From a virus, in IMG/VR virus record IMGVR_UViG_3300045988_100778, positions 41,345-105,344 of that record: a DNA stretch of 64,000 nucleotides. One strand, written 5' to 3'. Position 1 is the first letter of the stretch; every line of letters begins with the position of its first letter. The notes under the pieces are model-generated. The model was given only the letters and a program-made list of their open reading frames with translations, had not been told where the DNA came from and searched no databases. Position numbers and translations under genes: made by a program. Positions 11,633 to 54,600 of this stretch are shown here, one piece after another.

Positions 11633-14600
11633 ATGATTACTAAGACAGCGAATACGATTGCAAATTTAAAGAATTTGTGGATTGAAATGTTTTTAAACAA
11701 GACCGACCGTGTTTCAAACATTGCGGACGGTTCTGTACTTAATGGCGTCGCTTATGGTACCGCAAAGGTGGCGCAAAAAGCGATAAAGGATATTGCCATA
11801 GTGGAGGCGCAGATTTTCCCAAAGTCGGCAACAGGCGATTATCTGGACAAATCGGCCGCGTTGTTCGGTGTAAGTCCGAGAAAAGAAGCGCTTGGCTCCT
11901 CTACTTATGTACGTGTTTTTGCCGAGCCTGGCACGCATTATGAGGTAGGAACAAAGTTTATTTCAAAGAACGGAGTGCAATTTACTGTAGACCAACCTTT
12001 TACGGTTGATAAGTCGGGATATGGATATATCAGTGTAAGAAGCGTTATCACTGGGTCTGCTACCAATGTGGAGGCAAACAGTATTACGGAAGTATCGCCA
12101 AGACCATTGACACATATAGAGTGCACGAATGAATATGCGGCTATCGGTGGACGTGATTATGAGGACGACGAGACATTCAGAAACAGAATAATAAATTATA
12201 ATAACAAGCTTTCCACTGACACTATGGAAGGCTGGACGCAAATATTCCAGGATTTAGACCCGCGCATTTTAAAGGTAATGAATGTTGGGCTGGGTGAGGA
12301 CGGAAAGACACACATTTACCTTGTAACCCAAAACGGGTCTTTCTTTACGGATGATGAATTGGAAGAATTGCTTACAAAAGCTACACCCTATTTCGGACTG
12401 ACCGAACTTGACTTGCAAGGGAATACGCTTGGAATTGTGATAGAAAATGCAAAATGGATGTATGTAGGCGGTGAAGAGGGGGTGGATTTCCGTGTGGAAT
12501 TGTCGCCTAATGCAGTGATTGCGGATGTAAGAAAAAATATCCAGATTGCAATGACGAAGTATCTGGATTTCCGTTTCTGGGAAGCAGGCAAAAAGGTAGA
12601 ATGGGATGATTTGCTGGAAGTGGTGAAGACTGCGGAAGGCGTTAAGTATGTACCGGACGAATATTTCTTTCCCTATTTTGACGAAGAGGTGCCTTTGAAC
12701 ATGTTGCCGCGTATCAAGGGATTCAGAATGCGAGACTTGGAAGGGAATATTCTGTATGATTCGGGCAGCAGTTTGTCCAATATTTTTTATCCGGCAGGAG
12801 AAAGCGACATATATAAAGGTTCTCAATCGGTTATAGCGTCACAGAAATATTTGTGTTCATTTACCGTAACCAATACCAAGAATGTAGCCGTACCGGGCGC
12901 ATATATAACAATAGGAAACAAGGTAATCATTACGGACAGTAACGGTACGGCAAACATTCTTTTGGAAAATGGGGAATACACATACATATTGTCAAAAACG
13001 AACTGGACACAGAAGACAGGGGAGTTTGTTGTTCTGAACAATCCTATTTACATAAACATAAATGATTTTATTGCAACACCCTATCCGGTTACGTTTACTG
13101 TATATGAAGGTGAAGCGCCCTTGCAGGGAGTGACTGTAACTACAAGCGTTTACACGTCAGAAACGGACGATAAGGGGCAGGCAGTCATTAACCTGGAGCC
13201 GGGAACCTACGAATACAAGCTTGAAAAGTCGGGTTTCCAGACCATAGAAAGCGTATTTACGGTCGAAAATCAGCCAGTAGACATATTTCAAAGAATGTTT
13301 CTTACAAAAATGAATGTAAATTTTGCTGTAATTGACAGAAACAGAAGTATTTACATTCCGGAAGCAAACATCACAATAAATGACATAAAGGAAAAGACGG
13401 ATAACGAAGGGCAGGCAAGTATGGGATTGCAAACCGGGAAATACGAAATGAGGGTTGCAAAAGAAGACTATCAAGACCTTGTAAAGGAAATTGAGATTGT
13501 TGGGGAAGACCCTAATTGTATTCTCGTCGAAATGACGGCAATTCCGTATGCGATAAAGTTTACGGTGCTGGATTCTGCTACCCACATGGTTCTGGAAGGA
13601 GCAACGATAAAGATAAATGGTTCTACCTATCTGACCGACAAGGAAGGTATAGCGATTATAAGTTTGCCGAACGGAACCTATGAATATACGGTTTTCAAGT
13701 CCGGTTATATGTCCGTTAATGATTTTGTAGTGGTGGAAGGTTCGGAAGTTTCTAAAATTGTGGAATTGGAACAAGCTTTCTATACATTCCGCTTGACTGT
13801 ACGGGACATTGAAAACGGTAACTATATCCAGGGTGCAGAATTGCAGATAAACGGAGAGACGCGTGTAACGAACGTCAACGGTGTTGCAAGCGTAACACTT
13901 GGAAACGGTGACTATGAATATACGGTAACGCACAGAAACTATAAGAGATATACCGGAACTGTGACTATCAAAGACCAGGACGTGCCGGAAACAATTTACT
14001 TGGAATTGAGAGATACGGTAATAACATACACTGCAACGGACGCGATAACGAAGGCTCCTATTTCCGGCGTATATATCGAATTGATAAACAAGGGAACTGG
14101 AATTAAGGTGGATTCCGGTTACACGAATGATATAGGTGTATTGCAGCTTGGAGCGGAAGCAGGGGAATATACTTGGAATGCGACACACAGATATTATGAT
14201 GCGGTAGAAAACCAGTCGATAACGCTTGAAAAATTGAAGGATATAGACCTTCCCTTTACTATGACAAGAAGGGAAATCGAACCGGAAGTTGACGTAATAG
14301 AGAATATCCCCGGTGTGTCCGGTGATGCTACTACAGTAAGGTTCAGTGGTGAAAATACGGCTGAGACGTTATCTAATGACAGTTATTATTACATAGTTCA
14401 TACACCGGAAAACTTCGTTATTCCTAACAAAGGGGTGACGTTTGATTTGATGGAACATGTAAAAACTTTTCGACGTGCAGAAATTGGCGGTGAGGACGAG
14501 CCATACGATTTTGCAAGTGGAGGTGCAGAATTGGTATTCAACGTATCGAATGACGAAATAGCTTCTTTGGAAGGTACGATGTTGACAGTGCAGCCGAATG

Positions 14601-17600
14601 TGACACGTGATGCACAGCCGAGAACTTTCTATGTGGATGTGACGATAACGACTCCGGTAAGCCAGGTGACTGTAAAGATAACTGCTGAACAGAAAGCTGC
14701 TCTGAACTTCAATCCGGTTAAGGACGGAATTGTCGTTTCGGTAAAAAATATGTACAATGATAATGTACGGGAATATACGACGAACGCGGCAGGAAAGATA
14801 TTTCCGGAAGTGATGTTGGGTATTGACTATCAGTTGACAATAAAGGAGAAAGGTTTCTACGAGAACAACGGCTTGCTGATTAAGAACTGGGGCTTCGGTG
14901 CGAGTGTACCTACACTGATGGAAATAACGGCTTCAAAAAGGCTTGAATTGAGAGTAAAACAGCAGAATACCCTAAGACCGCTTGAAAATGCGACTATAAA
15001 GGTGTCCGGAATGTCACTGCCTCAAACCGTTACGTCCGGAAGTGATGGTTCGGCAAGAGTGTACATTTCACCTATTGCAATGAGCTATGAGTGTACAGTA
15101 ACAGACCATACGAAAAAGACTGGAACATTCACACCCCCGTTGTCGGCTGATTATATGGATATAATCATGGGTTATGCTGCAATGACATTCAGTCTGACAT
15201 TAACAGCAAGTAACCCCTATTCCAAGGCGGCAGAAAGTTGTCCGGTAACGGTTACGAGTGCATGGAGCGGAACATCTTCACAATCATATAGTTTTTCTGG
15301 AACAACGGATGCAAGCGGACAATTGACATCACAAGGAAATGGAAATTTCAATATACCGCCTGGAAATTATACGATAACCTATGGAGGTGGAAACAGTAAT
15401 TTCGACGGTAAGACAGAAAATATCTATCTGCCTACGGACAAGACGCATTCAGCAGTATTAACAAGAAGAACGAAATCAGTCACATTCACGGTAAAGGAAA
15501 TAATACCCTCTATTTCGACTACAGCATCAAATCCGGTAAAGACAGGTCTTGTGCTTGCATGCTATTACAACGACAATAGTACATCTTCGGGTGCGAATGT
15601 AACGACGAATGCAAGCGGACAATTTACAAAAACAGTGTATGCAGGAATTGCAGAACGTTTCCAGGTGCAACCAATAGGATTCTATTCTGGAAACGGTGCA
15701 ATAGCTACAGTCAATTATAAAGATGCAAACACAAAAGACCTTGTATATACATGTTCAAAGAGAATTCCGGTATATATCACATCCAATCTGTATGGTGAGT
15801 TAAGTGGCGCATCAGTGACGTTCAACGGAATGTCTGTGAACCAGACAGGAACGACCAATACGGACGGGATAGTGCAAATGTACATATCTCCGGTAAATAT
15901 GTCTTACAGTGTAAGCAAGCAGCATTACAATACCAAGACTGGGAATTTCAAGCCTACCGGAACAGAAACAAGAATGGATATTGAATTGGAGGCGAAGGAG
16001 TACCCGGTCACTTTCCATGTGTCAACACAAGGAGTTTTGCCACCGGACGGAATTTTGGTACGTGTGACAAACAACGCATTGCCGGACATTGTATTTGAGG
16101 GCGAGACGAATGTGGAAGGAACGATAGTCATGCCGAATGTTCCGGTAGGAGAATACACCTATGATGTTCTTGCAGGTGAGGTTTCATCCGACACATTCTT
16201 CCATCCTCAAAGTGAAAGTGGTACAGTGTTGGATGTAGAAGTGCAATATGAATTGATTAACGCAGGTATTCAAGTTTCGGAGGTGTATGGTACGGCAGGA
16301 AGGGCGTATCTGTCAAATCAGACTATTACAATGACTTCCAAGGCAGGAACGATAAAGCTTACTTTGGATGAGAACGGTTATACCAATCAGTTATTAATAA
16401 AGGGATTGGAATACACGTTTACGACTGATTCATACCCGGCTTTTTATAGCAACCCGACACAATCCTATACATGGACCGAAGACGGTGTGATATGGCCGTT
16501 CAACTTGAATGTGACCTCAAAGATAACGGTCAATGTAAAGGATGTATATGTGAAAAACAATATCCAGGGAGTAACGGTAGCTTACAACGAACAGATAGTG
16601 ACGACGGATGCAAGCGGTAACGCTTCATTGTTCCGGTCAGCACTGACAAAGGACTATTCTTTGGATAAAGAGGATTATAGTACAGTAAATGGAACCATTG
16701 CACCTACCACGGCTTCACCACTCAATGTCACGATGTTGAGAAACAAACATGTAGTGACGGTACAGCAGTATGAAGTAATACCAGGTGGTGCGAGTGTAAT
16801 TTTGGACGGTGGTTATAATTTTACTCTTAATTATACATCAGCAGCAGGAAACGGAACTATTAGTAGTGGTACAAATACATTTGAGGCATATATCGGCATT
16901 CCTATCACATTTGCAATAGTAGCAGAGAACAGAAGGGTATTTTATAGTAATCCAACTCAAACCCATACATTTACATCGGCAGGTGAGAAATGGAACATGA
17001 ATCTTACTTGTGCGAAACAGATAACCGTAAATGTGAAAGACAATGTGCCTGGCGCGAATGTACAGGGAGCTACGATAAACTATTTTACACAGACAAAAAC
17101 GACGGATGCGAGCGGAAACGCAGTCTTTTATTGGAGTGGTTCAGACCCACGTAATATATCAGTAAGTGCTTCAAATCTGGAATCTTATACCGGACAGATA
17201 GCTTACAATTCACCAAATCCGTTCAATGTTGTAATGACACGTGCAGCCAATCCGGTTACACTTGTAGTAAGAGAAATAACGCCAGCACAAACAACTTATT
17301 ATCAGAACTTACAGATAAAATACACGGTAGGAAGTGCAACCGGAACACTTACTACAAATGCGAACGGTGCAGTGACATTCAATGGATATATAGGTACGGA
17401 AATGACGTTTACGGTAGTGGGACATCCGGAATTTTACAGCAACCCGACACAGAAACACACCTATACAGCCGCCAATCAGTCATGGACTATGGATTTGACG
17501 GTAACAGCAAAGATAACGATTAATGTCAAATCGAATGTACCGAGCGGAACAAATTTGAGTAGAGCTACCGTATCATATTTTCATCAGACAGGGACAACGG

Positions 17601-20600
17601 ACAATAGCGGTAATGTATCATTGTATAGGAGTTCTGTAACAAGAAATGTAGATATTACAGCGACATATCACGGTAATTATAGAGGCAGTATAACGTCAGA
17701 CACCGCGTCTCCGTTCAACGCGGTAATGACGCGTTCAACCGCGACAGTAAGTCTTGGAGTGAGTGAAGTTGTTCGGGTTACTCCTAAATACATGCTCGAA
17801 ATCACTACGGATGCAAGTTCTGCTGTAACTCCTAGATTAGGTGGCTTCTATTTTGGTACACCAACAGCAGCAAATAAGGAGTTTGTGGCGTATTTTAGAG
17901 CAAAGATTCCGGCTGATAGAAAGCTTATTTTTGCAAGTAATGCAACAGGTGACAACCCTATAAGAAAATGGGTTAATTCAAATGACGGAAAAGGAACAGG
18001 AGGATGGTACACTTATGCCTACTATGTAAGATGCGGTTCTACTGGAAGGTTTTCAACAACCAATTTTTTCTATATAGAGGGTGGAAGTAGACCGATTACA
18101 TGGTATCTCGAAATGGCAACGGTATTCGACATAACCGGAAGCAATGTTCAGAATAAATCGGATGCCGAGATTTTAAGTAAGTGTACTTTTGATAGAATGT
18201 TGTCTGGCAATAAAGACTTTTTGTTCAATGAAGGCTCGAACAGAATAAGATGGTACAATAATTCTAATACAAATGCTGTAACAGTGACAAGAAAGGCGGC
18301 TTCTGGAACAGACACGTTTAATTTCACGATGGCAACTTATGCGTCTATGAAGATGAATTTCAGTCCGGCAGCTTCTACAAGTCCTTTGACACTTGATACA
18401 AACGGTAATGTGTCTTTTGTATGCTATTTAGGTACGCCAGTAACATTCACACCGACAACAAGAGCTAATTATTACAGTAATCCAAATACTGCACTGACTT
18501 ATACAGCAGCAGGACAGTTCCAGGGAATATATCTGATTTGTAACCAAAAGATAACCATTAATACAGTAGCGAATATCTACAATACAAGTAATGCACTTGC
18601 AGGAACGATAACCTATTTCGGACAGACACTTCCGTCTGGAGGAAGCTTCTATAGAAGCGGATTAGACAGACAAATGACCGCCACGGCACAGTATTTCAAC
18701 AACTACGTAGGAACAGTTACCGCCACACAGACATCACCCTATACAGTGACGATGAACAGGACGACAAGAACAGTAACATTGATTGTTAGGGAATCAGTAG
18801 GTAGCAATGAATATACATTGAGTAATGCGGTGATAGTAAGAAGTGTTCCGTCTACTTCAAATGCTCCGGCAGGAGAAATAACACTGGACGCAAACGGAAA
18901 GAAAACGAATACTGTATATGCAGGTATAAGCTACACCTATACACCAAAGAATTACGCAAGCTATTACAGCAATGCAAGCCAGGGTCATACATGGACGAGT
19001 GAAAACGAGCAATGGATTATGACATTGAATGTGACGGCACGTCTGACATTCAACATAAAGAGTTCTAATTATGGGACAAATATAAGTGGAGTATCATGTT
19101 CCTATTTAGGACAGACTGGAACGACTGATTCCAGTGGTAACTGGACTGTATACAGAAGTGGTATAAGTAGAAGCTACTCATTCTCGAAAACAAATTACAA
19201 TGCGTTATCCGGTACATTATCGGCAGCACAAGCAAGTCCGTTGAACTTGAAAATGAGTGAGACAAGTTCTTCTATCACTATAACAATAAAGGACTATTAT
19301 CAGAGTGCCGTAAAAGGAAATGCGAACGGATGTCCGGTAACGCTGACGAACAAGAGCCTTTCTTCTATCACGTTCACGGGAACGACAAACAGTAGCGGAC
19401 AGGTGAGTTTCGGACCCATGATAGCAGGTTCATATACATTGTCATGGGGTGGAGGAACAAGTTATTGGGTAAATGGAAGTACCACGATAACAATGCCTAC
19501 AGCAACAACTACACAGAATGCTGTAAGATTGACGAAGATTGTAGGTAATGTATTTTATTTCCAAACACCAGCTACAGGAACGGCATTCAAATATTGGGCC
19601 GTAAATACTTTATTGAAGCCAGTATATACCACTGGAGGAGTGGCGACAACAGTAACTTTGGTAAAATCGGGTGCGACATATTATGATATAGGAAACTACA
19701 CGTACATTGCAGGTATAGCAACGACAATAAGTACGGCAGTAGCGACATATTTCAGAACCGGAAGTTCTACCAACACTGCTTCCGTATATTCTGTCACTCC
19801 TACGTACAACTTTAACAATATACCGGGTGTCACAAGTTCAGCGCCTTTATGTTCGTATGCGATAAAGGGTATTGTAGTGACTGTACAGAACAGCTATACA
19901 AATGCGGCTGTAAATGGAGCCACAATAAAGATGTATGGTATAAACGGTAGTAATGTTGTTGGAGGCGCAGGAGATGGTGCAGTACAGACTGTAACGACAA
20001 ACAGTGCAGGACAGGCGACAGTATATATATCTGGACTGACAAACAGATACATAGTAAGTGCGACAAGATACGTGACATTAAACACCACCAACACGAACAC
20101 CTCTAACTTTACAATCAAGCTGGTACCGTCGGAAGTGACAATAACAATAAACGTAAACAACGCGAGTACAGGTTCAAGAGTAGGAAGTGGTGTAATAGTG
20201 AAGCTGTCAAGTAACAACACCAGCACGACATATAGCGGCACTACAAACTCGTCCGGACAGGTGGTACTGAAGATAAAGCCGGGCAATTATTGGTGGGAAG
20301 CAGGAGGTAGCACGACCTGGGGAGGAAACGGAACAGGAACATGGAATTATCCGAACCGTTCCACTACCTCAATCTCTCTCATCAAAGACCAGTCCATAAC
20401 AATAGAGGCTCTAAAGGTAGGGGTGTGGGTTGATAGTGGAAGTGTGTATTTTGGATTTAAAAATAACGAAAGTTTTTATACTGGTATAAATAGAGAAAAT
20501 GGAGGGTCTGATTATATAGCTCATATCGGCAGTAGTCAAGCATTTATGATGAATATACCGTCTGATGTAAATACTTCAAATTATACGGTAAAAAAATTCT

Positions 20601-21913
20601 TATATTCATTTTCAAGACCTGGAATTGCTGCTCCATTTATAAATGCTTCTGTAATAACAACTTCTTCCAATGGTTCTTTTCAATATAATATCGGAACTGA
20701 CTTTAGTTCAAGTGAAGTCTTAATGGCAGATTTTCTTTATCTGTCTCTTTGGGGTGAAGCTTCTTATAATTACACTTTTGTAATGTATAGTGTAACAAGA
20801 TATTCATTAGCGGCTTATTATTGTCAAATAAGAATTTTAAAACAGACTGGTCAAATGCAACAATCTACATATTTTTTGCAAGAAGTTAGTTATGATGATT
20901 TGCCATACATAAAAGATATTTTAAATAATTTTTGTTACAAGAATTATTACGTTCCTTTATTGAATTATGGAGAAAACCAGGATGATAATTATATTTATAT
21001 AGTAACGGGAATGGATTGTTTCGAATCTACTGATTATGTAATAAGTTATTCTATAGATTATCAGAATACACCTGGGAGTCTTTGGAGCAGAAACCGTCTT
21101 CAAATTAGTGGTAATTCGAGAGTAAGTTCTGGTGCTGTAAAGAGATTCTTGTTTACACAAAGTAGTCACGAACTTTCCGTACTGGTATATGGTAAAAGAA
21201 ATGATGTAAATAATAAATGCCATGCTGCTGTGTTATCGTTTAAAAGTTCAGAATGGAGTCATATAAGAAGTGGTTCAATCGCCAATAATGTTTGGTCTGT
21301 ATATGACAATTTCCCGGCTGCATTTACTGACAAAATGGGTAATAATATGTGGGTTTCAAGTAATCTGAAATGGATGTTTGCTGTTTTGTATGGAACAACA
21401 GACAAACCGTATGGAAAGGGCCTCGTTACTGTAAAGAGTGCAACACCTATTATTGGGAAAACTGGCTGGTCTTTAACTACTTATTATATAGATGATGATT
21501 CAACATTGGAAATACGAAATGCAGTTGCTAATAAATACGTTCTTGATATTATTTTCAATAGCACTGACTATAAGATGATTGTATTATGTAACAGTCTGAT
21601 AGGTTCTGGATTAGACCAAGATACTTATTATTCTTTTATCAGTCCAGATTATTTATATTGCTTTGTTTATAACGGAAAGAAATGGATGGAATTTTCAAAA
21701 GAGAGTGTAGGAATGAGTACGTTGTGGAATAGATATGATAATTATAAGACAATACCTGGCGGTGGAACGTTTGTCGATTACAAACCTTATTTTAATGTTA
21801 TGGGTGTTACTGGTATATATGATAGTAACAGAAATATTTCTTTTGTCTATCCAGCAAAATATTCAACTTATGAACCAACAGCTTATGAATATAGTCTGAC
21901 ATTTGGTGATTGA
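11633..21913 (+). CDS. Giant (3426 aa) baseplate-J-like::tail-fibre fusion protein with a long array of beta-sandwich repeats and a switchable C-terminal tip
   Basis: The N-terminal ~400 aa fit the Baseplate_J/gp47 pattern (SATGDYLDKSAALFGVSPRKEALGSSTYVRVFAEPGTHYEVGTKF). At least ~20 CarboxypepD_reg-like repeats follow (..G..I.ING....TD..G.A.I.L.NG.YEY.V.K.GY). There are five larger FYSNPTQ.HT.T modules and a CBM-like insert. The C-terminal ~494 aa lie inside the inverted-repeat-bounded segment. Confidence 0.85.
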   Translation: MITKTANTIANLKNLWIEMFLNKTDRVSNIADGSVLNGVAYGTAKVAQKAIKDIAIVEAQIFPKSATGDYLDKSAALFGVSPRKEALGSSTYVRVFAEPGTHYEVGTKFISKNGVQFTVDQPFTVDKSGYGYISVRSVITGSATNVEANSITEVSPRPLTHIECTNEYAAIGGRDYEDDETFRNRIINYNNKLSTDTMEGWTQIFQDLDPRILKVMNVGLGEDGKTHIYLVTQNGSFFTDDELEELLTKATPYFGLTELDLQGNTLGIVIENAKWMYVGGEEGVDFRVELSPNAVIADVRKNIQIAMTKYLDFRFWEAGKKVEWDDLLEVVKTAEGVKYVPDEYFFPYFDEEVPLNMLPRIKGFRMRDLEGNILYDSGSSLSNIFYPAGESDIYKGSQSVIASQKYLCSFTVTNTKNVAVPGAYITIGNKVIITDSNGTANILLENGEYTYILSKTNWTQKTGEFVVLNNPIYININDFIATPYPVTFTVYEGEAPLQGVTVTTSVYTSETDDKGQAVINLEPGTYEYKLEKSGFQTIESVFTVENQPVDIFQRMFLTKMNVNFAVIDRNRSIYIPEANITINDIKEKTDNEGQASMGLQTGKYEMRVAKEDYQDLVKEIEIVGEDPNCILVEMTAIPYAIKFTVLDSATHMVLEGATIKINGSTYLTDKEGIAIISLPNGTYEYTVFKSGYMSVNDFVVVEGSEVSKIVELEQAFYTFRLTVRDIENGNYIQGAELQINGETRVTNVNGVASVTLGNGDYEYTVTHRNYKRYTGTVTIKDQDVPETIYLELRDTVITYTATDAITKAPISGVYIELINKGTGIKVDSGYTNDIGVLQLGAEAGEYTWNATHRYYDAVENQSITLEKLKDIDLPFTMTRREIEPEVDVIENIPGVSGDATTVRFSGENTAETLSNDSYYYIVHTPENFVIPNKGVTFDLMEHVKTFRRAEIGGEDEPYDFASGGAELVFNVSNDEIASLEGTMLTVQPNVTRDAQPRTFYVDVTITTPVSQVTVKITAEQKAALNFNPVKDGIVVSVKNMYNDNVREYTTNAAGKIFPEVMLGIDYQLTIKEKGFYENNGLLIKNWGFGASVPTLMEITASKRLELRVKQQNTLRPLENATIKVSGMSLPQTVTSGSDGSARVYISPIAMSYECTVTDHTKKTGTFTPPLSADYMDIIMGYAAMTFSLTLTASNPYSKAAESCPVTVTSAWSGTSSQSYSFSGTTDASGQLTSQGNGNFNIPPGNYTITYGGGNSNFDGKTENIYLPTDKTHSAVLTRRTKSVTFTVKEIIPSISTTASNPVKTGLVLACYYNDNSTSSGANVTTNASGQFTKTVYAGIAERFQVQPIGFYSGNGAIATVNYKDANTKDLVYTCSKRIPVYITSNLYGELSGASVTFNGMSVNQTGTTNTDGIVQMYISPVNMSYSVSKQHYNTKTGNFKPTGTETRMDIELEAKEYPVTFHVSTQGVLPPDGILVRVTNNALPDIVFEGETNVEGTIVMPNVPVGEYTYDVLAGEVSSDTFFHPQSESGTVLDVEVQYELINAGIQVSEVYGTAGRAYLSNQTITMTSKAGTIKLTLDENGYTNQLLIKGLEYTFTTDSYPAFYSNPTQSYTWTEDGVIWPFNLNVTSKITVNVKDVYVKNNIQGVTVAYNEQIVTTDASGNASLFRSALTKDYSLDKEDYSTVNGTIAPTTASPLNVTMLRNKHVVTVQQYEVIPGGASVILDGGYNFTLNYTSAAGNGTISSGTNTFEAYIGIPITFAIVAENRRVFYSNPTQTHTFTSAGEKWNMNLTCAKQITVNVKDNVPGANVQGATINYFTQTKTTDASGNAVFYWSGSDPRNISVSASNLESYTGQIAYNSPNPFNVVMTRAANPVTLVVREITPAQTTYYQNLQIKYTVGSATGTLTTNANGAVTFNGYIGTEMTFTVVGHPEFYSNPTQKHTYTAANQSWTMDLTVTAKITINVKSNVPSGTNLSRATVSYFHQTGTTDNSGNVSLYRSSVTRNVDITATYHGNYRGSITSDTASPFNAVMTRSTATVSLGVSEVVRVTPKYMLEITTDASSAVTPRLGGFYFGTPTAANKEFVAYFRAKIPADRKLIFASNATGDNPIRKWVNSNDGKGTGGWYTYAYYVRCGSTGRFSTTNFFYIEGGSRPITWYLEMATVFDITGSNVQNKSDAEILSKCTFDRMLSGNKDFLFNEGSNRIRWYNNSNTNAVTVTRKAASGTDTFNFTMATYASMKMNFSPAASTSPLTLDTNGNVSFVCYLGTPVTFTPTTRANYYSNPNTALTYTAAGQFQGIYLICNQKITINTVANIYNTSNALAGTITYFGQTLPSGGSFYRSGLDRQMTATAQYFNNYVGTVTATQTSPYTVTMNRTTRTVTLIVRESVGSNEYTLSNAVIVRSVPSTSNAPAGEITLDANGKKTNTVYAGISYTYTPKNYASYYSNASQGHTWTSENEQWIMTLNVTARLTFNIKSSNYGTNISGVSCSYLGQTGTTDSSGNWTVYRSGISRSYSFSKTNYNALSGTLSAAQASPLNLKMSETSSSITITIKDYYQSAVKGNANGCPVTLTNKSLSSITFTGTTNSSGQVSFGPMIAGSYTLSWGGGTSYWVNGSTTITMPTATTTQNAVRLTKIVGNVFYFQTPATGTAFKYWAVNTLLKPVYTTGGVATTVTLVKSGATYYDIGNYTYIAGIATTISTAVATYFRTGSSTNTASVYSVTPTYNFNNIPGVTSSAPLCSYAIKGIVVTVQNSYTNAAVNGATIKMYGINGSNVVGGAGDGAVQTVTTNSAGQATVYISGLTNRYIVSATRYVTLNTTNTNTSNFTIKLVPSEVTITINVNNASTGSRVGSGVIVKLSSNNTSTTYSGTTNSSGQVVLKIKPGNYWWEAGGSTTWGGNGTGTWNYPNRSTTSISLIKDQSITIEALKVGVWVDSGSVYFGFKNNESFYTGINRENGGSDYIAHIGSSQAFMMNIPSDVNTSNYTVKKFLYSFSRPGIAAPFINASVITTSSNGSFQYNIGTDFSSSEVLMADFLYLSLWGEASYNYTFVMYSVTRYSLAAYYCQIRILKQTGQMQQSTYFLQEVSYDDLPYIKDILNNFCYKNYYVPLLNYGENQDDNYIYIVTGMDCFESTDYVISYSIDYQNTPGSLWSRNRLQISGNSRVSSGAVKRFLFTQSSHELSVLVYGKRNDVNNKCHAAVLSFKSSEWSHIRSGSIANNVWSVYDNFPAAFTDKMGNNMWVSSNLKWMFAVLYGTTDKPYGKGLVTVKSATPIIGKTGWSLTTYYIDDDSTLEIRNAVANKYVLDIIFNSTDYKMIVLCNSLIGSGLDQDTYYSFISPDYLYCFVYNGKKWMEFSKESVGMSTLWNRYDNYKTIPGGGTFVDYKPYFNVMGVTGIYDSNRNISFVYPAKYSTYEPTAYEYSLTFGD
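20353..20430. repeat. Inverted repeat, left copy (IR-L), 78 bp, inside the giant fibre gene
   Basis: It is the exact reverse complement of 23487-23564 (78/78, checked base by base). In frame it encodes NRSTTSISLIKDQSITIEALKVGVW. Confidence 0.95.
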
Positions 21914-21918
21914 TTTAA

Positions 21919-21976
21919 TAAAGAGTAACTATATACCTAAACATTCTTGATGTAAATGGTATATAGTTACTCTTTA
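21919..21976. terminator. Bidirectional terminator-like hairpin between the two convergent fibre tips
   Basis: A 19-bp perfect stem TAAAGAGTAACTATATACC(21919-21937)/GGTATATAGTTACTCTTTA(21958-21976) has a 20-nt loop and A/T-rich flanks on both sides. Confidence 0.65.
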
Positions 21977-21997
21977 ATTAATATGAACACTTATTTA

Positions 21998-23563
21998 TTA
22001 GTCTCCGAAAGTCAGTTTAGCGTAATAAGCTGTCGTATTTTCGTTATATGAAGGGAAGGAATAACTCATATCCCAAGAACCAAGATAATTAGGATTGACA
22101 TTAAAGAATGGTTTGTATTTTGCACCAGAACTTCCAGAGGATATATATTTATTCCAGAAATTAGTAAATCCTACTGTACTATAAGGTATATTTACCCATT
22201 TTTTACCATTATACATAAATGTAAATAAATGAGTTGGATGAATACCTTCTATATATTGGTCTAATGTCTTTCCTCCTTGTGCTCCTACTGTATCGTTACA
22301 GAGAACAATCATTTTATTTTCATTCTTATTAAACTGAATTTCAAGTACATAATAATTTGCAAGTGTATTTCTTAAATCTGCTGTAGAGCTATCGTTAATG
22401 GAATAAGTAGCTATCTCATTCCAACCAATATTTACGCTAAAAAGTGAATTTGAACTTGTAACTGTATTAATACCTTTCCCTATTCCGTAATTCCCCCTTT
22501 TGCAATACATCAGTGTCTTCATATCTGTTGTTACCCAAGCATTCAAACCAAAATCATCTGTAATTGCAGAAGGAATATTATTGTAAAAAAACCAAAAATT
22601 ATTTCCTTGATTATCATCTATATAATTCCATGTAGGAGCACCTCTAAATATAAATATCCCAACCATATTAATTCCTCCAGGGTTTGATGTAGCAGATGAA
22701 TCTGGGCCGAAACCTAATATTATTAATATTCTATTTTTATAATCAATATGTAGTTTTTTATAAAAAAGGATTTTGAATACTTTTGAAACTGTCACCGAAG
22801 AATTTATGTCGAATTGATGACCTGTTGTACCGCTACCTATGCTCCATGAGTTAATTTTAAATCTTACCAGATTGATTGCTGAATTATATATCGGTGTAAT
22901 ATAACAGTTATTATATGAATATTCATTATATATAATATCTGATTCGTCTCTTGTAAAAAGTTGTGTGATAGAATTGCGTATAGAATAATTATTGCTAAAA
23001 TTAAATATCCAATTATCTTCTTGGCCAAAAATCTCAAATTTGAGATAATTTAGACTTCCACGTCTTACATTAAATTCCATCCATGTTATTCTATATGCAG
23101 AAGAATTACTGAGAAAGGTTCCTACAATATTTTGAAAATCACCGTCAGAACTTTTACTGAGATACAAGCTTCCTTGCATATAATAATATCCCGACAATAT
23201 GTTATCACTAAAGACATTAGGAAGTCCTGGAACCAAAACACTCGTACGTGTATATAAAAAATTATATGGGTCTATTCCCAAAGAAATAATTGTTTTACCT
23301 TGCGGAACATCTTGGTTTACAGAGCTGTCATTTGTATTGTAAGTTAAGACCATAGAACAAGAAGAACTTGGATATCTTTTATTTTCTGTTACTTCTGAAC
23401 TTGTTATATTGTTGTAATACACTAACCCAGTATATGAATTTTTTCTTGTAACGGCGACAGCATCTCCACCACTCCATTCATCACTCACCCACACCCCTAC
23501 CTTTAGAGCCTCTATTGTTATGGACTGGTCTTTGATGAGAGAGATTGAGGTAGTGGAACGGTT
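21998..23563 (-). CDS. Promoterless alternative fibre C-terminal cassette (paralogue of the tip encoded at 20431-21913)
   Basis: It is the only long minus-strand ORF. Its frame is open through IR-R and is closed by a TAG at 23564-23566. It has no ATG or SD of its own; the track's start at 23494 is a GTG inside the repeat. It shares the ...KMIVLCN..., NGKKW, YKPFFNV and LTFGD-COOH landmarks with the giant fibre C-terminus. Confidence 0.75.
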   Translation of the reverse strand, partial: NRSTTSISLIKDQSITIEALKVGVWVSDEWSGGDAVAVTRKNSYTGLVYYNNITSSEVTENKRYPSSSCSMVLTYNTNDSSVNQDVPQGKTIISLGIDPYNFLYTRTSVLVPGLPNVFSDNILSGYYYMQGSLYLSKSSDGDFQNIVGTFLSNSSAYRITWMEFNVRRGSLNYLKFEIFGQEDNWIFNFSNNYSIRNSITQLFTRDESDIIYNEYSYNNCYITPIYNSAINLVRFKINSWSIGSGTTGHQFDINSSVTVSKVFKILFYKKLHIDYKNRILIILGFGPDSSATSNPGGINMVGIFIFRGAPTWNYIDDNQGNNFWFFYNNIPSAITDDFGLNAWVTTDMKTLMYCKRGNYGIGKGINTVTSSNSLFSVNIGWNEIATYSINDSSTADLRNTLANYYVLEIQFNKNENKMIVLCNDTVGAQGGKTLDQYIEGIHPTHLFTFMYNGKKWVNIPYSTVGFTNFWNKYISSGSSGAKYKPFFNVNPNYLGSWDMSYSFPSYNENTTAYYAKLTFGD

Positions 23564-23564
23564 C
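23487..23564. repeat. Inverted repeat, right copy (IR-R), 78 bp
   Basis: It is the exact reverse complement of 20353-20430. Confidence 0.95.
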
Positions 23565-23644
23565 TACAGTATTTTTCGTCGTGTTTGTTTTCGTAATATC
23601 CAAAATTAATCGTATTTTTACCGTGCAATTAATTGTAGTTCAAC

Positions 23645-26600
23645 ATGGAAGTAAAACAGAAGAAAGAAAACCCGTGTGGGGGATTATTTTTACCCCAGTC
23701 CACACCTATATATGATAATTTGCCTTTCAGTCGTTTTTTCGAGGAAAACGACAAGGAAGTAATACGGTGGGCAGAAAATGTACTTGAAAAACTGGAAGGA
23801 AGGGGAATTTTGCCTACATTCCTAAAGAAGAAAGAGAACGAGGATTTCCGTGCATTCTGGGGAACCATAACCCATATATTCGCTTTGATAGTTCTGTATG
23901 CAAGACAATACAAAAAGATAGACACGAATCAGATTTTGTTCGAGATGTTTATTCAGAACAGAGGTCTTGTTACTAACATGGTGGACAGCCAGGAACAGAT
24001 GAAATACCTATTTTATAATTACCTGGAAGAATATTCAAAGCGTGGAAGACTTGACATCATAAGCAAGGAAGGCGAGATATTGGGAGAATTGTTGCGACTG
24101 ATAAGATACAATTCGTTGGACGAGTTTATATTTGCCTTGTTGAGACCGGAAGCTACGGGGTGGGCGATGGGACATAGTTCGCCTACATGTGACCGGACGA
24201 ATACGGTAATGAATGTATCAAAAGCGTATGAATATACAAAAGGAGTAGAGGATTTGAATAATTATCCTCTATTGATACCGGAAAGTATAAGTATAACGCA
24301 GGACGAAAACGGGAATGATGGAGAGATATTCAACGCTATGACATTTTTTGGCAACCAAGCCGTGGGTATAGACGGAAGGGTGGATTTGGACAAGCTTATA
24401 ATTATAGACCCGAACCTATCCTATGAAATATCATTGCAAGTAAAGGTGTCGGCTACAGACAATGAAAACCTAAAGTTTGGAGTAGCAGGCTATGAAACGG
24501 TAGATGGCGAGCCATTGCCTATGGGGATATTGGAAAACGGACAGATAACCGGAAGCTCTCTATGGTTCCACGAAAACGAATATTTAGACATAAAGAACGA
24601 GGGCATGTATTACTACATAAAAGGAATACTGCTGTCAACGAACGAGAAGTTTTTGAACGCACCTACGCTTAATTTCCCGTCTGGACGTGCTTTGTCGATA
24701 ATGCCGGGAATGAAGTATATCGCACCTATATTTATCCAGGAAAGAACGGTCGGGAATCACCCGTATGTATATATATACGATTTTCATGTGAAACCCTTAT
24801 ATCTGCCGTTTTCACAAGGATATTTGGGTGAACGCGATATTATAGCCGCCTACTACAAGAACAACGCATATCAGAGACAGTTCACCGTAGAGACCTTCCT
24901 AAAAAATTACCTTGTTGGATATAAGAACATATTCGGCAGTGAATTGATACGTCCTTATGTAGGAGAGGAAGAATATCAGATATTGTTCAAGGTATTTTCA
25001 AACCGGAATAAGTATATACCCAATGCGAAGATAACGGTAAACGGGGAAGAACTGATAACGGACGTTAACGGTGAGGCGAAGATAACGCTGCCGCGCGGAC
25101 AATGGTATTACGAGGTGGAAGCAGAAAACTTTGAAAGCGTGGAAAACACCTTATTGGTGGACAAGGATGCTGTAGAATATGTACAGTTAATGGGAGCCGC
25201 CTATGAACGGGTGGTTACGTTCTTTGTGCGCAACAAGGAGACAAAAGACTGGATGCAGAACGTGAAAGTGTCCTTTGCAGGAAAGGTGCAATATACCGGA
25301 AGCAACGGTATAGCGACATTCGAGGTATTTCCTGGTATATATGAATATGTGGCAGAATACGAGGACTATTATACAGTAAGAAGAAATGCTGAAATAGTGG
25401 ATTCTACCAATATCGAAATCGAGATGGAAAAGATACCTTACTATAACGTGACTTTCCGTATAAGGGATGGTGTGGAACCAGTATCGGGCGCATCCGTATT
25501 GGTGACGGGTGAGGGAATTCCTAATCAGACCGGAAGTTCTAATGCGCAGGGTCTTGCAACCGGGTTCGTATATCCGGCAGGAACGTATCATTATAAGGTT
25601 GTTAAGGAAGAATATGTGACGGTAGAAAATGACTTCACAATATACGGCAATGCCGTTATTGACGTGCAGTTCCACCCTATACCGAAATATAAGATAAATT
25701 TTATTGTGAGAAGCAACGGCTTGCCAGTGTCAAAGGCAGACGTGACGTTCAATGGAACGACGCTGCAAACGGCAAGTAACGGAGTTGTGACGTTCATAGA
25801 CATAGCAGGGGAATATAACTGGAAGGTGACAAAGACCGAATTCTATGCAAAGGACGGTACCGTAGAAGTTATCGACCAGGACGTGACGATAGAAGTTGAC
25901 TTGGTGCAGATGGGTTACTTGATTGACTTCTATGTGACGGACGAGGACAACACTCCATTAGACGATGCTTTGGTAACGATAGGAACGGAAGCGATAAGCA
26001 CGAGTGGAGGACAAGCGCAGTTTGTCCGGATATCGGGCGGCTATAACTGGACTGTACAGAAAGAAGGATATTATACCAAGCAGGGTGTAGTGACGGTGAA
26101 CGGGGAGAACAAGCGCGTGGACGTGCAATTGAAGCTTGTCACCTATGATATCATCTTTACTGTGAGGATGAATAATCAGCCAGTAAGGAACCAGCCCGTT
26201 GTGCTTGGAGTGGGAGAAGGAGAACAGACAGTCAATACGGATGGGAGCGGAAACGCGGTATTTAACCGTGTACCAGGCAGTTACCCGTGGAGTGTAAATA
26301 AAGAGGGGTACGAACCGAGAACTGGAACGGCAGTTTTGATAAACCAGCCTTTAGCCATAACGGTAGACCTTGTTAAGCAGACCGGAAAACTGACGGTAAA
26401 AGTTCTTGACGTAGAGACAGAACAGCCTATACAGAATGCAGTGGTGACGATAAACGGGGAGACGAGATATTCCAACAACAACGGTATTGCTGCAAGTTGG
26501 ACGTTAGAACTTGGTGTATGGGAATGGAGTGCCTCACAGCAAGACTATAACCCAGCAAAGGGTAATGTCAACATAAAGCCAGGAGAAAACGAGTACACCA

Positions 26601-29113
26601 TAAAAATGAGCGAGAAGTCCGCGGTTCCGTTCAACGTGACATTCAACGCTTCGATAGGGGCTGTCCAGGCTTCGGGAGCCAAAATAAACATTGTGGGACA
26701 GACAGAAGAACTCGTAACAAATGAGCTTGGTTTGGTATCTACACAATTGTTTTCGGGCACATACGACTATGTGGCAACTTATCCCTATTGCTATGACGTG
26801 GTGAACTCGTTTACCGTGTACAATTCAGACACCCGTGTTCCTATCAACTTTACCGTAAAGAGGGTGAATGTGAGAATACAGGTTGTTAATGGTAGCAATA
26901 TAGGTATAAGCGGTGCACAGGTGACGTTTAACGGAATGACACAGTATTCCGATGGGCAGGGATATACGACCTTCAATGTGGAGGCAGGAAGTTCTGGTAC
27001 GGCTACGGCAAGCAAGTTGCCTCAATACAACGAGAACAGTACCTATGTGACTGTAGGAGAATACGATACAAGTGCGACGATAGTTCTTGGCGTAAATACC
27101 TATAAAGTTATTTTTGACGTGGTGGACGAGAAAGGGATATCCATAAGAGGGGTACGTATTGTATGCGGAGGTACGGCAAAGAACACGGATGGAGCCGGGC
27201 GTGCGGTATTCGGAACATACGTACCGCCTCAGACATTAAGCTGGCAGGCGTCAAAAGCCGGATATCAGAGCCAGAACGGTTCTGTGAGCATAAGTAATAG
27301 CGACGAATATGTTAATGTCGTAATGACGCGCAACAAATGCCAGGTTACATATAACGTGCGTACAAAAAGCGGTTCTCCTATTTCTGGCGTAACTGTGGAA
27401 GACAACATAAGTTCGGGCGTGACAAGTTCGAGCGGCACCGTATCATGGATGGTACCATGTAACGATACCTATGCGTGGATAGCGACAAGTCAGAATTACT
27501 TTACAGAGAGCGGAAGTTACACGGTAGGGCCGGAAGAGTTCAGCAAGACGATTGACATAATAATGGAAGACGGTGCGGTACTGGAAGTAAGTGTGTCAAA
27601 TGGCACGAACATAGTGTTGCCCGTACTTAATACCTCCTCTACCGGGCTGAATAATCTTCGTGTTAAATGGGGAGATGGTGAGCAGACAGTAGGAACAAGT
27701 TCGCATACCTACAGTTCCGGAGGAACAAAGATAATATTGTTCGACTTTAACGGGATGTCGGCCAATTTATCATGGAGTGCAAACGGATTTTCAAGTTTCC
27801 AGAATTGTTTGACAAGAGTAATCAAGTGGTTTACCGAAAATGTGAGAACGTCGTGGGGAAAGGGAGCCTTCCAGGATTGCAGCAGTCTTGAATCGGTTGT
27901 AAGCTGGACTACAAGTCTTATGAGCGGTTCGGCAGATTCGTTCTTTGATGGGTGCAGTAGTTTAAGAAGTGTTCCGTCTGGATTATTTGAATTTGTGACA
28001 AGTGGTACATTCGTAAAAACATTTAAGGATAGCGGATTGAATGGTTCTGTGAACTTGTCAAGTGTGCTTGCAGGGAATTCGATAAGTGATTACTCTTACT
28101 GTTTTTGGAGATGTAAGAATATTTCTTCTGTATCTGGACAGTTAAGAACATCGGGTAATGGAACATCTTTGGATTATATGTTTGCGGAATGCAGCGGAAT
28201 GTCAAGTATAAGCAATGATATAGGCGCGATAAATATAAGTCATTGTGATTACATGTTTTCCAATTGCTCCAATTTACAATCACCTTGCAGAATAACGTTC
28301 AAGTTTTTTTCTGGACGTACACAATCGGCAAGTAGTTTTTGTTGGTCTTCGGGTATATCATCGTTGCCGAGCAATCTGTTTTCCGGGACTATATATTCAT
28401 TGTCCCTTAATAAAGCGTTTTCCGGTTGTACCAATTTGTCAAGTATAAGTTCGGGTGCATTTAATTATACAGTAAGTTCCGGTACACAATGTGTTGATAT
28501 GTTCTATGGTTGTACAAGCTTGCTGAATGTAAGCGGTGTAGTAATTCCGGATATCAGAAGCGCGGCCAACATGTTTTTGAATAGTGGCTTGACTACCATA
28601 ACATCTTCTCTTTTTTCCGATTCTCCTAATTGTGCTTCTTATGCGTATTGCTTTAGTGGATGTAGGAATTTGAGAACAGCAGGTTCACAAGGAAATCCGA
28701 TTACTCCATCGAATCATTCAGTGACGGTAGATATTGACGGAATGTTTGAGAATTGTTCCAATTTGCTGACGGCTGAATATGCTTTCGGTGATGTGACTGT
28801 AAATAAACTTGGACCTACCAGAACTGATAATAGTTATATAGAATCGGGGGTACTGAAATATATAACCAGTTGCACAAATACATTTAGCGGTTGCTCAAAT
28901 ATGACATCTCAACCGAGATGGGATTGTATAGTAGCCGGAGTAAAATTGCCGTCAGCTTATATGCCTCTGTTTTATTATTTTAAGAGAATATTCCAACCAT
29001 ATCAATTCGGTTTCCCGGATGTCGACAGTATATCCAAAAGCGGATGTTTCAGAGGATGTACAAAGATGAATGGTTACGACCAATATATTAGTGCTTATCC
29101 AGAATGGTTCTAA
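23645..29113 (+). CDS. Second large tail-fibre/baseplate protein (1822 aa) with beta-sandwich repeats and a C-terminal BspA-type leucine-rich-repeat domain
   Basis: About 13 CarboxypepD_reg-like repeats are present (e.g. AKITVNGEELITDVNGEAKITLPRGQWYYEVEAENF). A PKD-like VKWGDGEQTVGTSSHTYSSGG motif follows. Then come at least 10 LRR_5-like units (AFQDCSSLESV, FFDGCSSLRSVPSGLF, AFSGCTNLSSISSGAF, MFYGCTSLLNVSG, MFENCSNLLTAEYAF...). Confidence 0.8.
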   Translation: MEVKQKKENPCGGLFLPQSTPIYDNLPFSRFFEENDKEVIRWAENVLEKLEGRGILPTFLKKKENEDFRAFWGTITHIFALIVLYARQYKKIDTNQILFEMFIQNRGLVTNMVDSQEQMKYLFYNYLEEYSKRGRLDIISKEGEILGELLRLIRYNSLDEFIFALLRPEATGWAMGHSSPTCDRTNTVMNVSKAYEYTKGVEDLNNYPLLIPESISITQDENGNDGEIFNAMTFFGNQAVGIDGRVDLDKLIIIDPNLSYEISLQVKVSATDNENLKFGVAGYETVDGEPLPMGILENGQITGSSLWFHENEYLDIKNEGMYYYIKGILLSTNEKFLNAPTLNFPSGRALSIMPGMKYIAPIFIQERTVGNHPYVYIYDFHVKPLYLPFSQGYLGERDIIAAYYKNNAYQRQFTVETFLKNYLVGYKNIFGSELIRPYVGEEEYQILFKVFSNRNKYIPNAKITVNGEELITDVNGEAKITLPRGQWYYEVEAENFESVENTLLVDKDAVEYVQLMGAAYERVVTFFVRNKETKDWMQNVKVSFAGKVQYTGSNGIATFEVFPGIYEYVAEYEDYYTVRRNAEIVDSTNIEIEMEKIPYYNVTFRIRDGVEPVSGASVLVTGEGIPNQTGSSNAQGLATGFVYPAGTYHYKVVKEEYVTVENDFTIYGNAVIDVQFHPIPKYKINFIVRSNGLPVSKADVTFNGTTLQTASNGVVTFIDIAGEYNWKVTKTEFYAKDGTVEVIDQDVTIEVDLVQMGYLIDFYVTDEDNTPLDDALVTIGTEAISTSGGQAQFVRISGGYNWTVQKEGYYTKQGVVTVNGENKRVDVQLKLVTYDIIFTVRMNNQPVRNQPVVLGVGEGEQTVNTDGSGNAVFNRVPGSYPWSVNKEGYEPRTGTAVLINQPLAITVDLVKQTGKLTVKVLDVETEQPIQNAVVTINGETRYSNNNGIAASWTLELGVWEWSASQQDYNPAKGNVNIKPGENEYTIKMSEKSAVPFNVTFNASIGAVQASGAKINIVGQTEELVTNELGLVSTQLFSGTYDYVATYPYCYDVVNSFTVYNSDTRVPINFTVKRVNVRIQVVNGSNIGISGAQVTFNGMTQYSDGQGYTTFNVEAGSSGTATASKLPQYNENSTYVTVGEYDTSATIVLGVNTYKVIFDVVDEKGISIRGVRIVCGGTAKNTDGAGRAVFGTYVPPQTLSWQASKAGYQSQNGSVSISNSDEYVNVVMTRNKCQVTYNVRTKSGSPISGVTVEDNISSGVTSSSGTVSWMVPCNDTYAWIATSQNYFTESGSYTVGPEEFSKTIDIIMEDGAVLEVSVSNGTNIVLPVLNTSSTGLNNLRVKWGDGEQTVGTSSHTYSSGGTKIILFDFNGMSANLSWSANGFSSFQNCLTRVIKWFTENVRTSWGKGAFQDCSSLESVVSWTTSLMSGSADSFFDGCSSLRSVPSGLFEFVTSGTFVKTFKDSGLNGSVNLSSVLAGNSISDYSYCFWRCKNISSVSGQLRTSGNGTSLDYMFAECSGMSSISNDIGAINISHCDYMFSNCSNLQSPCRITFKFFSGRTQSASSFCWSSGISSLPSNLFSGTIYSLSLNKAFSGCTNLSSISSGAFNYTVSSGTQCVDMFYGCTSLLNVSGVVIPDIRSAANMFLNSGLTTITSSLFSDSPNCASYAYCFSGCRNLRTAGSQGNPITPSNHSVTVDIDGMFENCSNLLTAEYAFGDVTVNKLGPTRTDNSYIESGVLKYITSCTNTFSGCSNMTSQPRWDCIVAGVKLPSAYMPLFYYFKRIFQPYQFGFPDVDSISKSGCFRGCTKMNGYDQYISAYPEWF

Positions 29114-38845: not shown

Positions 38846-38886
38846 ACATAAGCACTTGCGTATGTCATAACATAATCTTATCTTTG
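38823..38886 (+). promoter_or_regulatory. Conserved promoter, copy 4 (upstream half overlaps the helicase 3' end)
   Basis: Reads ATGTTAAAAC...GACATAAGCAC-TTGC(38856-38859)-N19-TATCTTTG(38879-38886). The leader differs from that of copies 1, 3 and 5. Confidence 0.7.
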
Positions 38887-38979
38887 TAGTGTCTTCTTAA
38901 GGGAGGCAAGAAAAGAAGGTGAAAGACTGTAAAGAACATCTTTTTTGGGATATATTGTTTATGAATTAGTTTAGAGGAT

Positions 38980-44072: not shown

Positions 44073-44076
44073 TGGT

Positions 44077-49148: not shown

Positions 49149-49352
49149 ATGTTTGTACAGATAAACAATAAGAGGATAAAGATTACCTCTATCAGCAGAT
49201 ACAATGACGAGGGATATTCACAGTCAACCAAGAAGTTCAGAATAGCTTTGAAAATATCCAATGTCTGGGAAAGCTTCTATTTTGACAAGGAAGTAGAGAA
49301 AGATAATGTTTTGAAAAATCTTGACAATACATTAAAGGTAACTGCATTATGA
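49149..49352 (+). CDS. Hypothetical protein (67 aa)
   Basis: The ORF has an ATGA overlap with the next gene. Confidence 0.45.
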   Translation: MFVQINNKRIKITSISRYNDEGYSQSTKKFRIALKISNVWESFYFDKEVEKDNVLKNLDNTLKVTAL

Positions 49353-54489: not shown

Positions 54490-54600
54490 ATGTTAATCTT
54501 ATGTTAAAACGACATAAGCACTTGCGTATGTCATAACATAATCTTATCTTTGCAATGTGAGATTAAGAGATAAGAAGTCAAACAACAAAAAGATAAAGTT
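54490..54600 (+). promoter_or_regulatory. Conserved promoter/leader cassette, copy 5
   Basis: Reads ATGTTAATCTTATGTTAAAACGACATAAGCAC-TTGC(54522-54525)-N19-TATCTTTG(54545-54552), followed by the leader GTGAGATTAAGAGATAAGAAGTCAAACAACAAAAAGATAAAGTT and the ATG at 54601. Confidence 0.75.

Follow-up and report, generated by a model that had tools for sequence, protein, structure and literature searches.

Host-range switching by inversion of a tail-fibre segment is textbook knowledge for temperate enterobacterial phages that possess Gin or Cin invertases. In the G segment of Mu with Gin, the C segment of P1 with Cin, the P segment of e14 with Pin and the Min system of p15B, a constant N-terminal part is encoded outside the invertible segment and alternative C-terminal parts are encoded inside it on convergent strands. 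The repeats of the Mu G and P1 C type lie in coding sequence and a flip keeps the frame, the presumed purpose being an alternative host range. The same logic is met here in a 64,000-nucleotide stretch of viral DNA (positions 41,345 to 105,344 of IMG/VR virus record IMGVR_UViG_3300045988_100778; hereafter the window, in which all positions are counted) from an abundant, uncultured and apparently virulent phage of the human gut. Its giant tail-fibre gene ends in one of two alternative tips that are enclosed between the arms of a 78-bp inverted repeat. The logic of Mu G and P1 C is known; what is new is its occurrence, apparently without an invertase, and with a large pool of tips in a gut-phage lineage. 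Our reading, to which we assign a probability of roughly 0.58, is that the locus is a two-slot invertible cassette of receptor-binding tips, flipped mainly by homologous recombination and serving as a host-range bet-hedge.

Apart from the layout, there are clear differences from the Gin/Cin systems. Those have a serine invertase gene adjacent to the segment, whereas none was found here, either beside the segment or in a composite of the genome. Their crossover sites are 26-34 bp long, with two dyad half-sites around a fixed central dinucleotide, and no gix- or cix-like core was recognised in the 78-bp repeat. A Fis-dependent recombinational enhancer is a further feature of those systems. They pair a fibre-assembly gene of the U/U' type with each variable part, and such a gene is absent from this segment; a first-pass annotation of this DNA had already noted that no fibre-chaperone gene is present, and indeed two tips and an 84-nt spacer fill the segment completely. 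The tips here are predicted beta-propellers of ~495 amino acids (aa), carried on a 2900-aa baseplate-J protein. Mu and P1 invert mainly as prophages, whereas no integrase and no prophage copies were seen for this phage. The same annotation had counted the length of the repeat as an argument against a Gin/Cin mechanism, which is weak, since the repeats of the P1 C segment are ~0.6 kb long.

Several other kinds of invertible locus invite comparison. Among the gene-altering programmed inversions of bacteria described by Milman, Yelin and Kishony (2023, PMC9881135), tail-fibre genes are one of the enriched families. These loci likewise consist of a repeat within a gene and a downstream, start-less partial paralogue on the opposite strand, but they are chromosomal or prophage-borne and usually have a recombinase nearby, whereas the locus described here belongs to a large phage that is apparently virulent and encodes a RecA, and whose lineage distributes a pool of 10 or more tip types over just two slots. 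Shufflons (R64 Rci; Rin of Bifidobacterium prophages, PMC6109161) also use inversion to give alternative C-termini to an adhesin or receptor-binding protein; unlike the present locus, with two arms, two cassettes and no recombinase found, they comprise several segments with at least three crossover sites and have a tyrosine recombinase alongside. The mechanistically closest system is flip-flop between inverted repeats without a dedicated recombinase, as in the segment isomers of herpesviruses and the inverted repeats of plastids. Isomers of ~30 kb between repeats of 400-700 bp, with orientations that do not follow phylogeny, have been reported in cyanophages (bioRxiv 10.64898/2026.02.14.705889). 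All of these resemble the present locus in an inversion without a dedicated recombinase, as proposed here, and in keeping their arms in concert. However, their repeats are hundreds to thousands of bp long and their genes are reordered without any being recoded, whereas here a repeat of 78 bp (61-62 bp in one lineage) lies within an open reading frame (ORF), and a flip recodes the receptor-binding end of the protein.

A repeat within the fibre gene and two convergent tips

The fibre ORF (11633-21913, plus strand) encodes 3426 aa. Within it, the left arm of the repeat (IR-L, 20353-20430, plus strand) is reverse-complementary to the right arm (IR-R, 23487-23564, minus strand) at 78 of 78 nt, and mismatches start directly beyond both edges, so that the exact match and sharp edges given in the first-pass annotation proved correct on re-checking. 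No second inverted repeat with an exact seed of 20 nt is present in the window, and the likelihood of a chance origin is negligible. Codons 20354-20428 of the left arm encode the 25 residues NRSTTSISLIKDQSITIEALKVGVW, which form the joint between fibre and tip. The right arm encodes the same 25 residues in frame with a second, silent tip; the shared peptide had been claimed before, and translation of the fibre ORF and of the minus-strand cassette agrees with it. The minus-strand frame across the right arm reads a stop followed by NRSTTSISLIKDQSITIEALKVGVW, the stop being a TAG at 23564-23566 on the outer edge of the arm. This TAG does close the frame, as had been stated, but it does not lie wholly beyond the repeat, for its G is the outermost base of the arm. 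As regards a possible crossover site, direct reading of the repeat shows only two short dyads, GAACCGTTC at the outer edge and TAGAGGCTCTA in the centre.

The tip now fused to the fibre, of type C in the classification given below, occupies 20431-21913 on the plus strand, starts with VDSGSVYF and ends with LTFGD and a stop. The silent tip, of type A, occupies 21998-23486 on the minus strand, starts with VSDEWSGG, ends in the same way and has no start codon ahead of the repeat. The two ~495-aa proteins are 29% identical (BLASTP E 4e-46), and all four landmarks on which their paralogy had been proposed, KMIVLCN, NGKKW, YKP(Y/F)FNV and LTFGD-COOH, are present in both. Between them lies the 84-nt spacer (21914-21997), which holds a strong hairpin with a 25-bp stem (21913-21937 paired with 21958-21982; fold -32.6 kcal/mol, z -7.2) that looks terminator-like in both directions.

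Three statements of the first-pass annotation on the minus-strand cassette need qualification. It was called the only long minus-strand ORF of the window; there are others of 273-396 aa, all of which overlap plus-strand genes, but the cassette (21998-23563) is the longest and the sole one free of overlap. It was said to have no start, and there is indeed no ATG after the TAG until codon 71, but the earliest in-frame codon that could serve as a start is a GTG within the repeat (codon 24), and gene callers use it to predict a 498-aa protein from 23494 (P0001). Finally, it was said to have no promoter, which is probable: a TAATTTTG box of the Bacteroidota -7 type is present on the minus strand at 23608, in the intergenic region (23565-23644) ahead of the second large fibre gene, but it is missing from the flank variants of relatives and from a second lineage.

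The constant part of the fibre (11633-20352, plus strand) starts with a Baseplate_J-like N-terminus (PF04865, 2e-16, in Pfam; phrog_6, baseplate wedge, in PHROGs), continues with CarboxypepD_reg, PEGA and Ig-like repeats and ends in a strain-mosaic 3' stretch of ~2.4 kb. Identity between strains over the last ~1-3 kb (~18000-20352) is 73-92%. This mosaic stretch differs even where the tips and right flank of two strains are 98-99.8% identical; it contains 31-nt direct repeats, and the fibre ranges from 2762 to 3426 aa among relatives. The G+C content of the tip cassettes is ~30-31%, against ~42-43% in both flanks, in the window and in all 36 related loci, which hints that the tips come from a separate evolutionary pool or origin. 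Downstream of the switch is the second giant fibre-like ORF (23645-29113; 1822 aa, with CarboxypepD_reg repeats and a weak DUF285 match), whose G+C content falls to 36-40% at its 3' end (28000-29000), where no repeat-bounded cassette was seen.

Related genomes carry the same tip pairs in both orientations

A first sample of relatives, ~50 contigs found by exact-word scans with part of the repeat, was skewed toward a conserved repeat, and a second sample was therefore drawn via the neighbouring 278-aa protein (29140-29976). It comprises 36 genomes that cover the region. Each of the 36 has exactly two arms, with edges at the same points, around a segment of 3116-3216 nt, and each has two convergent tips of 506-524 aa, except that one silent copy is cut short; the hairpin spacer, of 46-108 nt, is present in 35 of them. 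In one lineage the repeat is just 61-62 nt, as the right arm departs from it in its outer 17 nt, and there the stop lies 7 codons ahead of the repeat with no ATG between.

At a threshold of 70% identity the tips fall into 10 types, and every type with two or more members (8 of 8) occurs both fused and silent. Reciprocal pairs are C/A (three) and A/C (three), A/B and B/A, D/E and E/D, F/E and E/F, and D/B and B/D. Type C, fused in 3 genomes including the window, is silent in 9 relatives, and the 3249-aa fibre of one relative (P0057) ends in the tip that is silent in the window (97% identity over 521 aa). Together with the reciprocal pairs, this supports the earlier proposal that a flip would exchange the tips and keep the frame. 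Whole segments in opposite orientation are 99.84%, 99.2% and 99.1% identical, with flanks at 74-98%, and the hairpin loop between the tips is likewise reverse-complemented where the segment is flipped. The comparison of related genomes, which the first-pass annotation had named as a check that could refute its proposal, was thus positive for both orientations of the same cassette pairs, and this supports the view that the segment flips. Segments are far more alike than their flanks, so whole segments evidently also move between phage lineages.

The tip types are divided unevenly between the slots, the fused-to-silent counts being 8:2 for D, 7:2 for E, 4:10 for B, 3:9 for C and 7:7 for A (chi-square p 0.027 over the 36 related loci, whose genomes are not independent). 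This is a possible sign of selection on the displayed tip. A megablast search of 19000-25000 against GenBank phages gave no match, and a full-text literature search found no description of this locus.

Contigs frequently break in the fibre region. Nine IMG/VR contigs (L238, L254, L256, L266, L271, L282, L284, L286 and L288) start exactly 26 nt ahead of the homologue of 29140-29976. Two contigs of ~106-108 kb have both linear ends at the right arm of the repeat, and two further loci end in the repeat and may likewise have both ends there (the loci concerned are L222/L235, L221/L225/L237, L046/L053 and L049). Assembly breaks in the fibre region could reflect the length of the repeat relative to k-mer size, strain mixtures or mixed orientations.

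Silent tips are intact and constrained

Intact silent tips are found in 35 of the 36 genomes. The ratio of nonsynonymous to synonymous substitution (dN/dS) within tip types is mostly 0.2-0.45, reaching 0.7-0.85 for the least diverged type, and is about equal for pairs of fused tips and pairs of silent tips. Internal deletions or premature stops damage a few cassettes, those in the silent slot of L028, L023, L024 and L277 and in the fused slot of L038, and this surplus in the silent slot (3-4 against 1) is not significant. Decay would be expected of a copy that is never expressed, and silent tips that are intact and similarly constrained imply either that the slots are swapped faster than the tips diverge or that the silent copy is expressed by itself. 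The latter is disfavoured by the upstream stop, the lack of a conserved start and the absence of the TAATTTTG box from variant flanks. Selection on the silent copies argues for frequent use of the switch.

The arms evolve in concert

Perfect arms, identical at 78 of 78 nt, are found in 22 of the 33 genomes that have the full-length repeat. On average the two arms differ by 0.79 nt within a genome and by 4.17 nt between genomes, a contrast that 0 of 10,000 permutations reach. Minor alleles between columns 13 and 73 are shared by the two arms in nearly all cases, even though the tips next to them differ. Between genomes the repeat shows 4.0 differences per 78 nt, compared with 11-15 in adjoining windows of the fibre gene, and is thus ~3 times more conserved. 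A mutation on one arm cannot be passed to the second by conservative site-specific exchange; sharing of alleles requires gene conversion, that is, homologous recombination. Comparison of the arm sequences therefore demonstrates that gene conversion acts between them. A fixed crossover point, sought in the mismatches between arms, was rejected, the mismatches being scattered over columns 1-77.

Recombination genes are present and no invertase was found

To search for a recombinase, ORFs of at least 100 aa in the window were scanned against Pfam and partly against PHROGs; four replication genes were covered solely through precomputed hits of a relative's homologues, and the ORFs of 42477-46560 were outside the scan. 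The latter two adjacent ORFs (42477-44072 and 44077-46560) resemble, by eye, a DNA polymerase III alpha subunit split in two frames. The ~40 kb beyond the window were represented by a composite of relatives (L009-L014, L015, L071, L143 and L097), covered by scans and precomputed Pfam hits. Neither the window scans nor the composite that completes the ~105-kb genome showed a Resolvase (PF00239) or Phage_integrase domain. The suggestion of the first-pass annotation that the mechanism may differ from Gin/Cin is supported by this result, as the search beyond the window likewise turned up no serine or tyrosine recombinase. One candidate for a hidden recombinase, a 432-aa protein (L071:16319-17617), has at most a weak helix-turn-helix match and no relative in the PDB.

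Three genes of the replication and recombination module, all on the plus strand, are candidates for a role in recombination between the arms: a bacterial-type RecA (50377-51348; PF00154 1.6e-73, RecA_C 9.6e-15), a Holliday-junction resolvase (53332-53847; phrog_1770 1.8e-20) and a trans-acting Mre11/SbcD-like phosphoesterase (49349-50377; PF00149 8.1e-11). A 666-aa ORF adjoining the Mre11-like gene matches no family. UvrD-like and SNF2-like helicases are also encoded, according to precomputed hits for a relative's homologues.

The tips are predicted beta-propellers

The tip sequence has no match in Pfam, in PHROGs or among PDB sequences. An AlphaFold model of the silent tip (pLDDT 74.5, pTM 0.82) is almost all beta. 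Structurally it compares best with seven-bladed propeller lectins (PLL5, PHL), sialidases and neuraminidases, paramyxovirus attachment proteins, and phage fibre or hemagglutinin proteins. Structure prediction, which the first-pass annotation had proposed for both tips, was run on the silent one, and on this model the tips are predicted to be beta-propellers. In a HMMER scan of 1.84 billion cluster representatives, 22 relatives of the tip were found, of ~480-498 aa or fragments, together with one 3417-aa fibre. The tip family thus appears essentially private to this locus and phage group. A 797-aa protein (P0017), considered as a short fibre with this tip, was rejected, being a fibre truncated at a contig end.

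How the segment may be flipped

What might turn the segment over if the phage encodes no invertase? The 78-bp repeat encodes a 25-residue joint at which the constant fibre stops and with which the second, start-less tip begins on the opposite strand. In the mechanism that we propose, recombination between the arms would flip the 3.06-kb segment, after which the other ~495-aa predicted beta-propeller would be the in-frame C-terminus and the earlier tip would be silent, while the hairpin between the convergent tips would stop transcription whichever the orientation. The exchange would be driven mainly by the phage's RecA, resolvase and Mre11-like nuclease, with no dedicated invertase, and flipping within populations would be frequent enough for host-range bet-hedging. 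The arms may double as portable homology for swaps of segments between co-infecting phages, and the tips may bind host surface glycans. In homologous recombination, crossover is an alternative outcome of gene-conversion intermediates, and 78 nt (or 61-62 nt) of identity should suffice for RecA-type recombination, given the minimal homology that it generally requires. Because gene conversion occurs between the arms, the phage carries the enzymes and an invertase was not found, we favour homologous recombination, at somewhat better than even odds, over a site-specific enzyme acting in trans, for which the odds are clearly low.

Several observations weigh against this proposal. No isogenic pair with opposite orientation was found among the relatives: the fibre upstream of the repeat always differs and, in the reciprocal pairs, is always 73-92% identical just ahead of it. 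Some of the differences in orientation may therefore be due not to flipping in place but to a segment acquired from another phage, which could have entered either way round. The IMG/VR identifier 3300045988 appears to stand for a pooled collection, and contigs under it were not counted as coming from a single sample. The source contig assembled straight across the repeat, which suggests that one orientation dominates in the source sample. The structural matches of the tip reach TM-scores of just 0.3-0.5. Finally, the failure to find an invertase refers to a composite of strains at the sensitivity of Pfam and PHROGs, with ORFs under ~100-150 aa mostly skipped, and it covers phage genes, not host enzymes that might act in trans.

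Such an enzyme would produce the same switch by acting on a short core within the repeat, whether it were a serine or tyrosine invertase of a Bacteroidales host or an unrecognised phage protein. We consider this unlikely. In its favour are repeat edges that are sharp and identical in 36 of 36 genomes across 10 tip types, a repeat better conserved than the adjoining fibre coding sequence by a factor of ~3, and the dyads GAACCGTTC and TAGAGGCTCTA. Bacteroides invertases such as Mpi act on distant sites, and several phage ORFs, L071:16319-17617 for example, have no assigned function; invertible regions without a nearby recombinase are also known (PMC9881135). Yet no Resolvase or Phage_integrase domain was found in the composite genome, and the outer 17 nt that contain the GAACCGTTC dyad are missing from the right arm of one lineage whose cassettes are still diverse. 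The Mpi consensus, taken as ARACGTWCGT, is not in the repeat, its sole match in the window being at 56411, which is a weak test. Moreover, alleles shared by both arms across the whole repeat indicate that homologous recombination acts on it in any case. A more doubtful explanation is that the second tip is a stored spare without a working switch, populations being fixed in one orientation and segments being imported only rarely between co-infecting phages. Horizontal movement is apparent from segments that are 99.8% identical between flanks of 74-95% identity, full-length contigs assemble across the repeat, and both the missing isogenic pair and the uneven slots (p 0.027, again from genomes that are not independent) would fit. 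It is harder to reconcile with silent tips that stay intact in 35 of 36 genomes without a start codon and with a dN/dS like that of fused tips, which calls for frequent expression on the timescale of sequence change, with pervasive gene conversion between the arms, of which crossover is the alternative outcome, and with the presence of each common tip type in both slots.

Two further explanations carry much less weight. The minus-strand cassette could be an independent gene that starts at the GTG in the repeat, its free product joining the fibre via the shared N-terminal residues; the 498-aa protein predicted from GTG 23494 and the TAATTTTG box on the minus strand at 23608 are in its favour. 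We regard it as very improbable, because in both lineages a stop closes the frame directly ahead of the repeat and no ATG follows until codon 71, variant flanks and the second lineage lack the promoter-like box, a start at the GTG would drop nearly all of the 25 shared residues, and other genomes carry the same tips as in-frame ends of the fibre. That the repeat was made by a chimeric join or a duplicated end is hardly credible. Several contigs do break at or within the repeat, but the same layout recurs in 50 or more contigs of independent origin (ENA, JGI and IMG/VR assemblies), with conserved frames, intact ORFs and arms that co-vary, which disposes of the assembly artefact that the first-pass annotation had raised against its own proposal.

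In the light of these alternatives, inversion by homologous recombination remains the reading that we prefer. A wider version of it, in which a virulent gut phage switches host range in a programmed way without a dedicated invertase, is put forward more tentatively, as somewhat less than an even chance: gene conversion would keep the in-frame repeat identical, RecA would flip the segment while the phage replicates, and the arms would provide docking homology throughout the lineage, which would share and reshuffle at least 10-20 lineage-specific beta-propeller tips. The likely hosts, Bacteroidota, phase-vary their own surface glycans. If the segment is flipped by the phage's own homologous recombination, a short in-frame repeat would suffice to carry a spare receptor-binding module, and such switches would escape searches keyed on invertase genes. 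The tips, of which there are at least 10 types that can replace one another at a defined joint of 25 residues, form a natural modular set that could be of use in engineering receptor-binding proteins, and the locus could serve as a marker for tracking phage-host dynamics in gut metagenomes.

The phage and its host

In the window, a terminase gene with a Hint module is followed by tail and baseplate genes and then by the replication and recombination module. A small protein of the window was found in 1088 indexed blocks of a public assembly collection, on contigs of 102-106 kb from human-gut metagenomes. The window matches the 105,344-nt contig k99_95822 (ERZ27261566) and its JGI copy, probably its source. 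A protein search gave distant relatives only: Bacteroides DAC phages (33% aa identity) and a Chryseobacterium phage, which are the nearest in culture, and an unannotated faecal phage (46%). A ~60-nt intergenic repeat is present in four copies, at ~2080-2125, 38845-38890, 54511-54556 and 62768-62815, three of which are identical over 44 nt. All four end in TATCTTTG or TATTTTTG, in agreement with the Bacteroidota -7 promoter box TAnnTTTG, and they are probably a set of phage promoters. A 26-mer of the inverted repeat has no occurrence in 185,579 species-representative genomes, and the window and composite scans showed no integrase. From the DAC and Chryseobacterium relatives, the TAnnTTTG box, a BACON-domain protein in one relative, the absence of the repeat from the species-representative genomes and the failure to see an integrase, this is probably a virulent human-gut phage of ~105 kb, and its host is likely to belong to the Bacteroidota.

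Some features outside the switch may be recorded. The large terminase (55-2061) contains a Hint/homing-endonuclease-associated, intein-like module (PF05203, 3.9e-18), and in relatives (L009-L014) the terminase is either 704 aa long with the Hint module or 560 aa without it. One relative (L143) encodes a Zeta-toxin-domain protein (1.5e-34) beside the portal gene and the BACON-domain protein upstream (7640-8569 and 4394-5920). An IS605-type TnpB (OrfB_IS605 and Cas12f1-like TNB domains) is inserted in some relatives (L014, 1-939; L097, 10780-11973), although not in the window.

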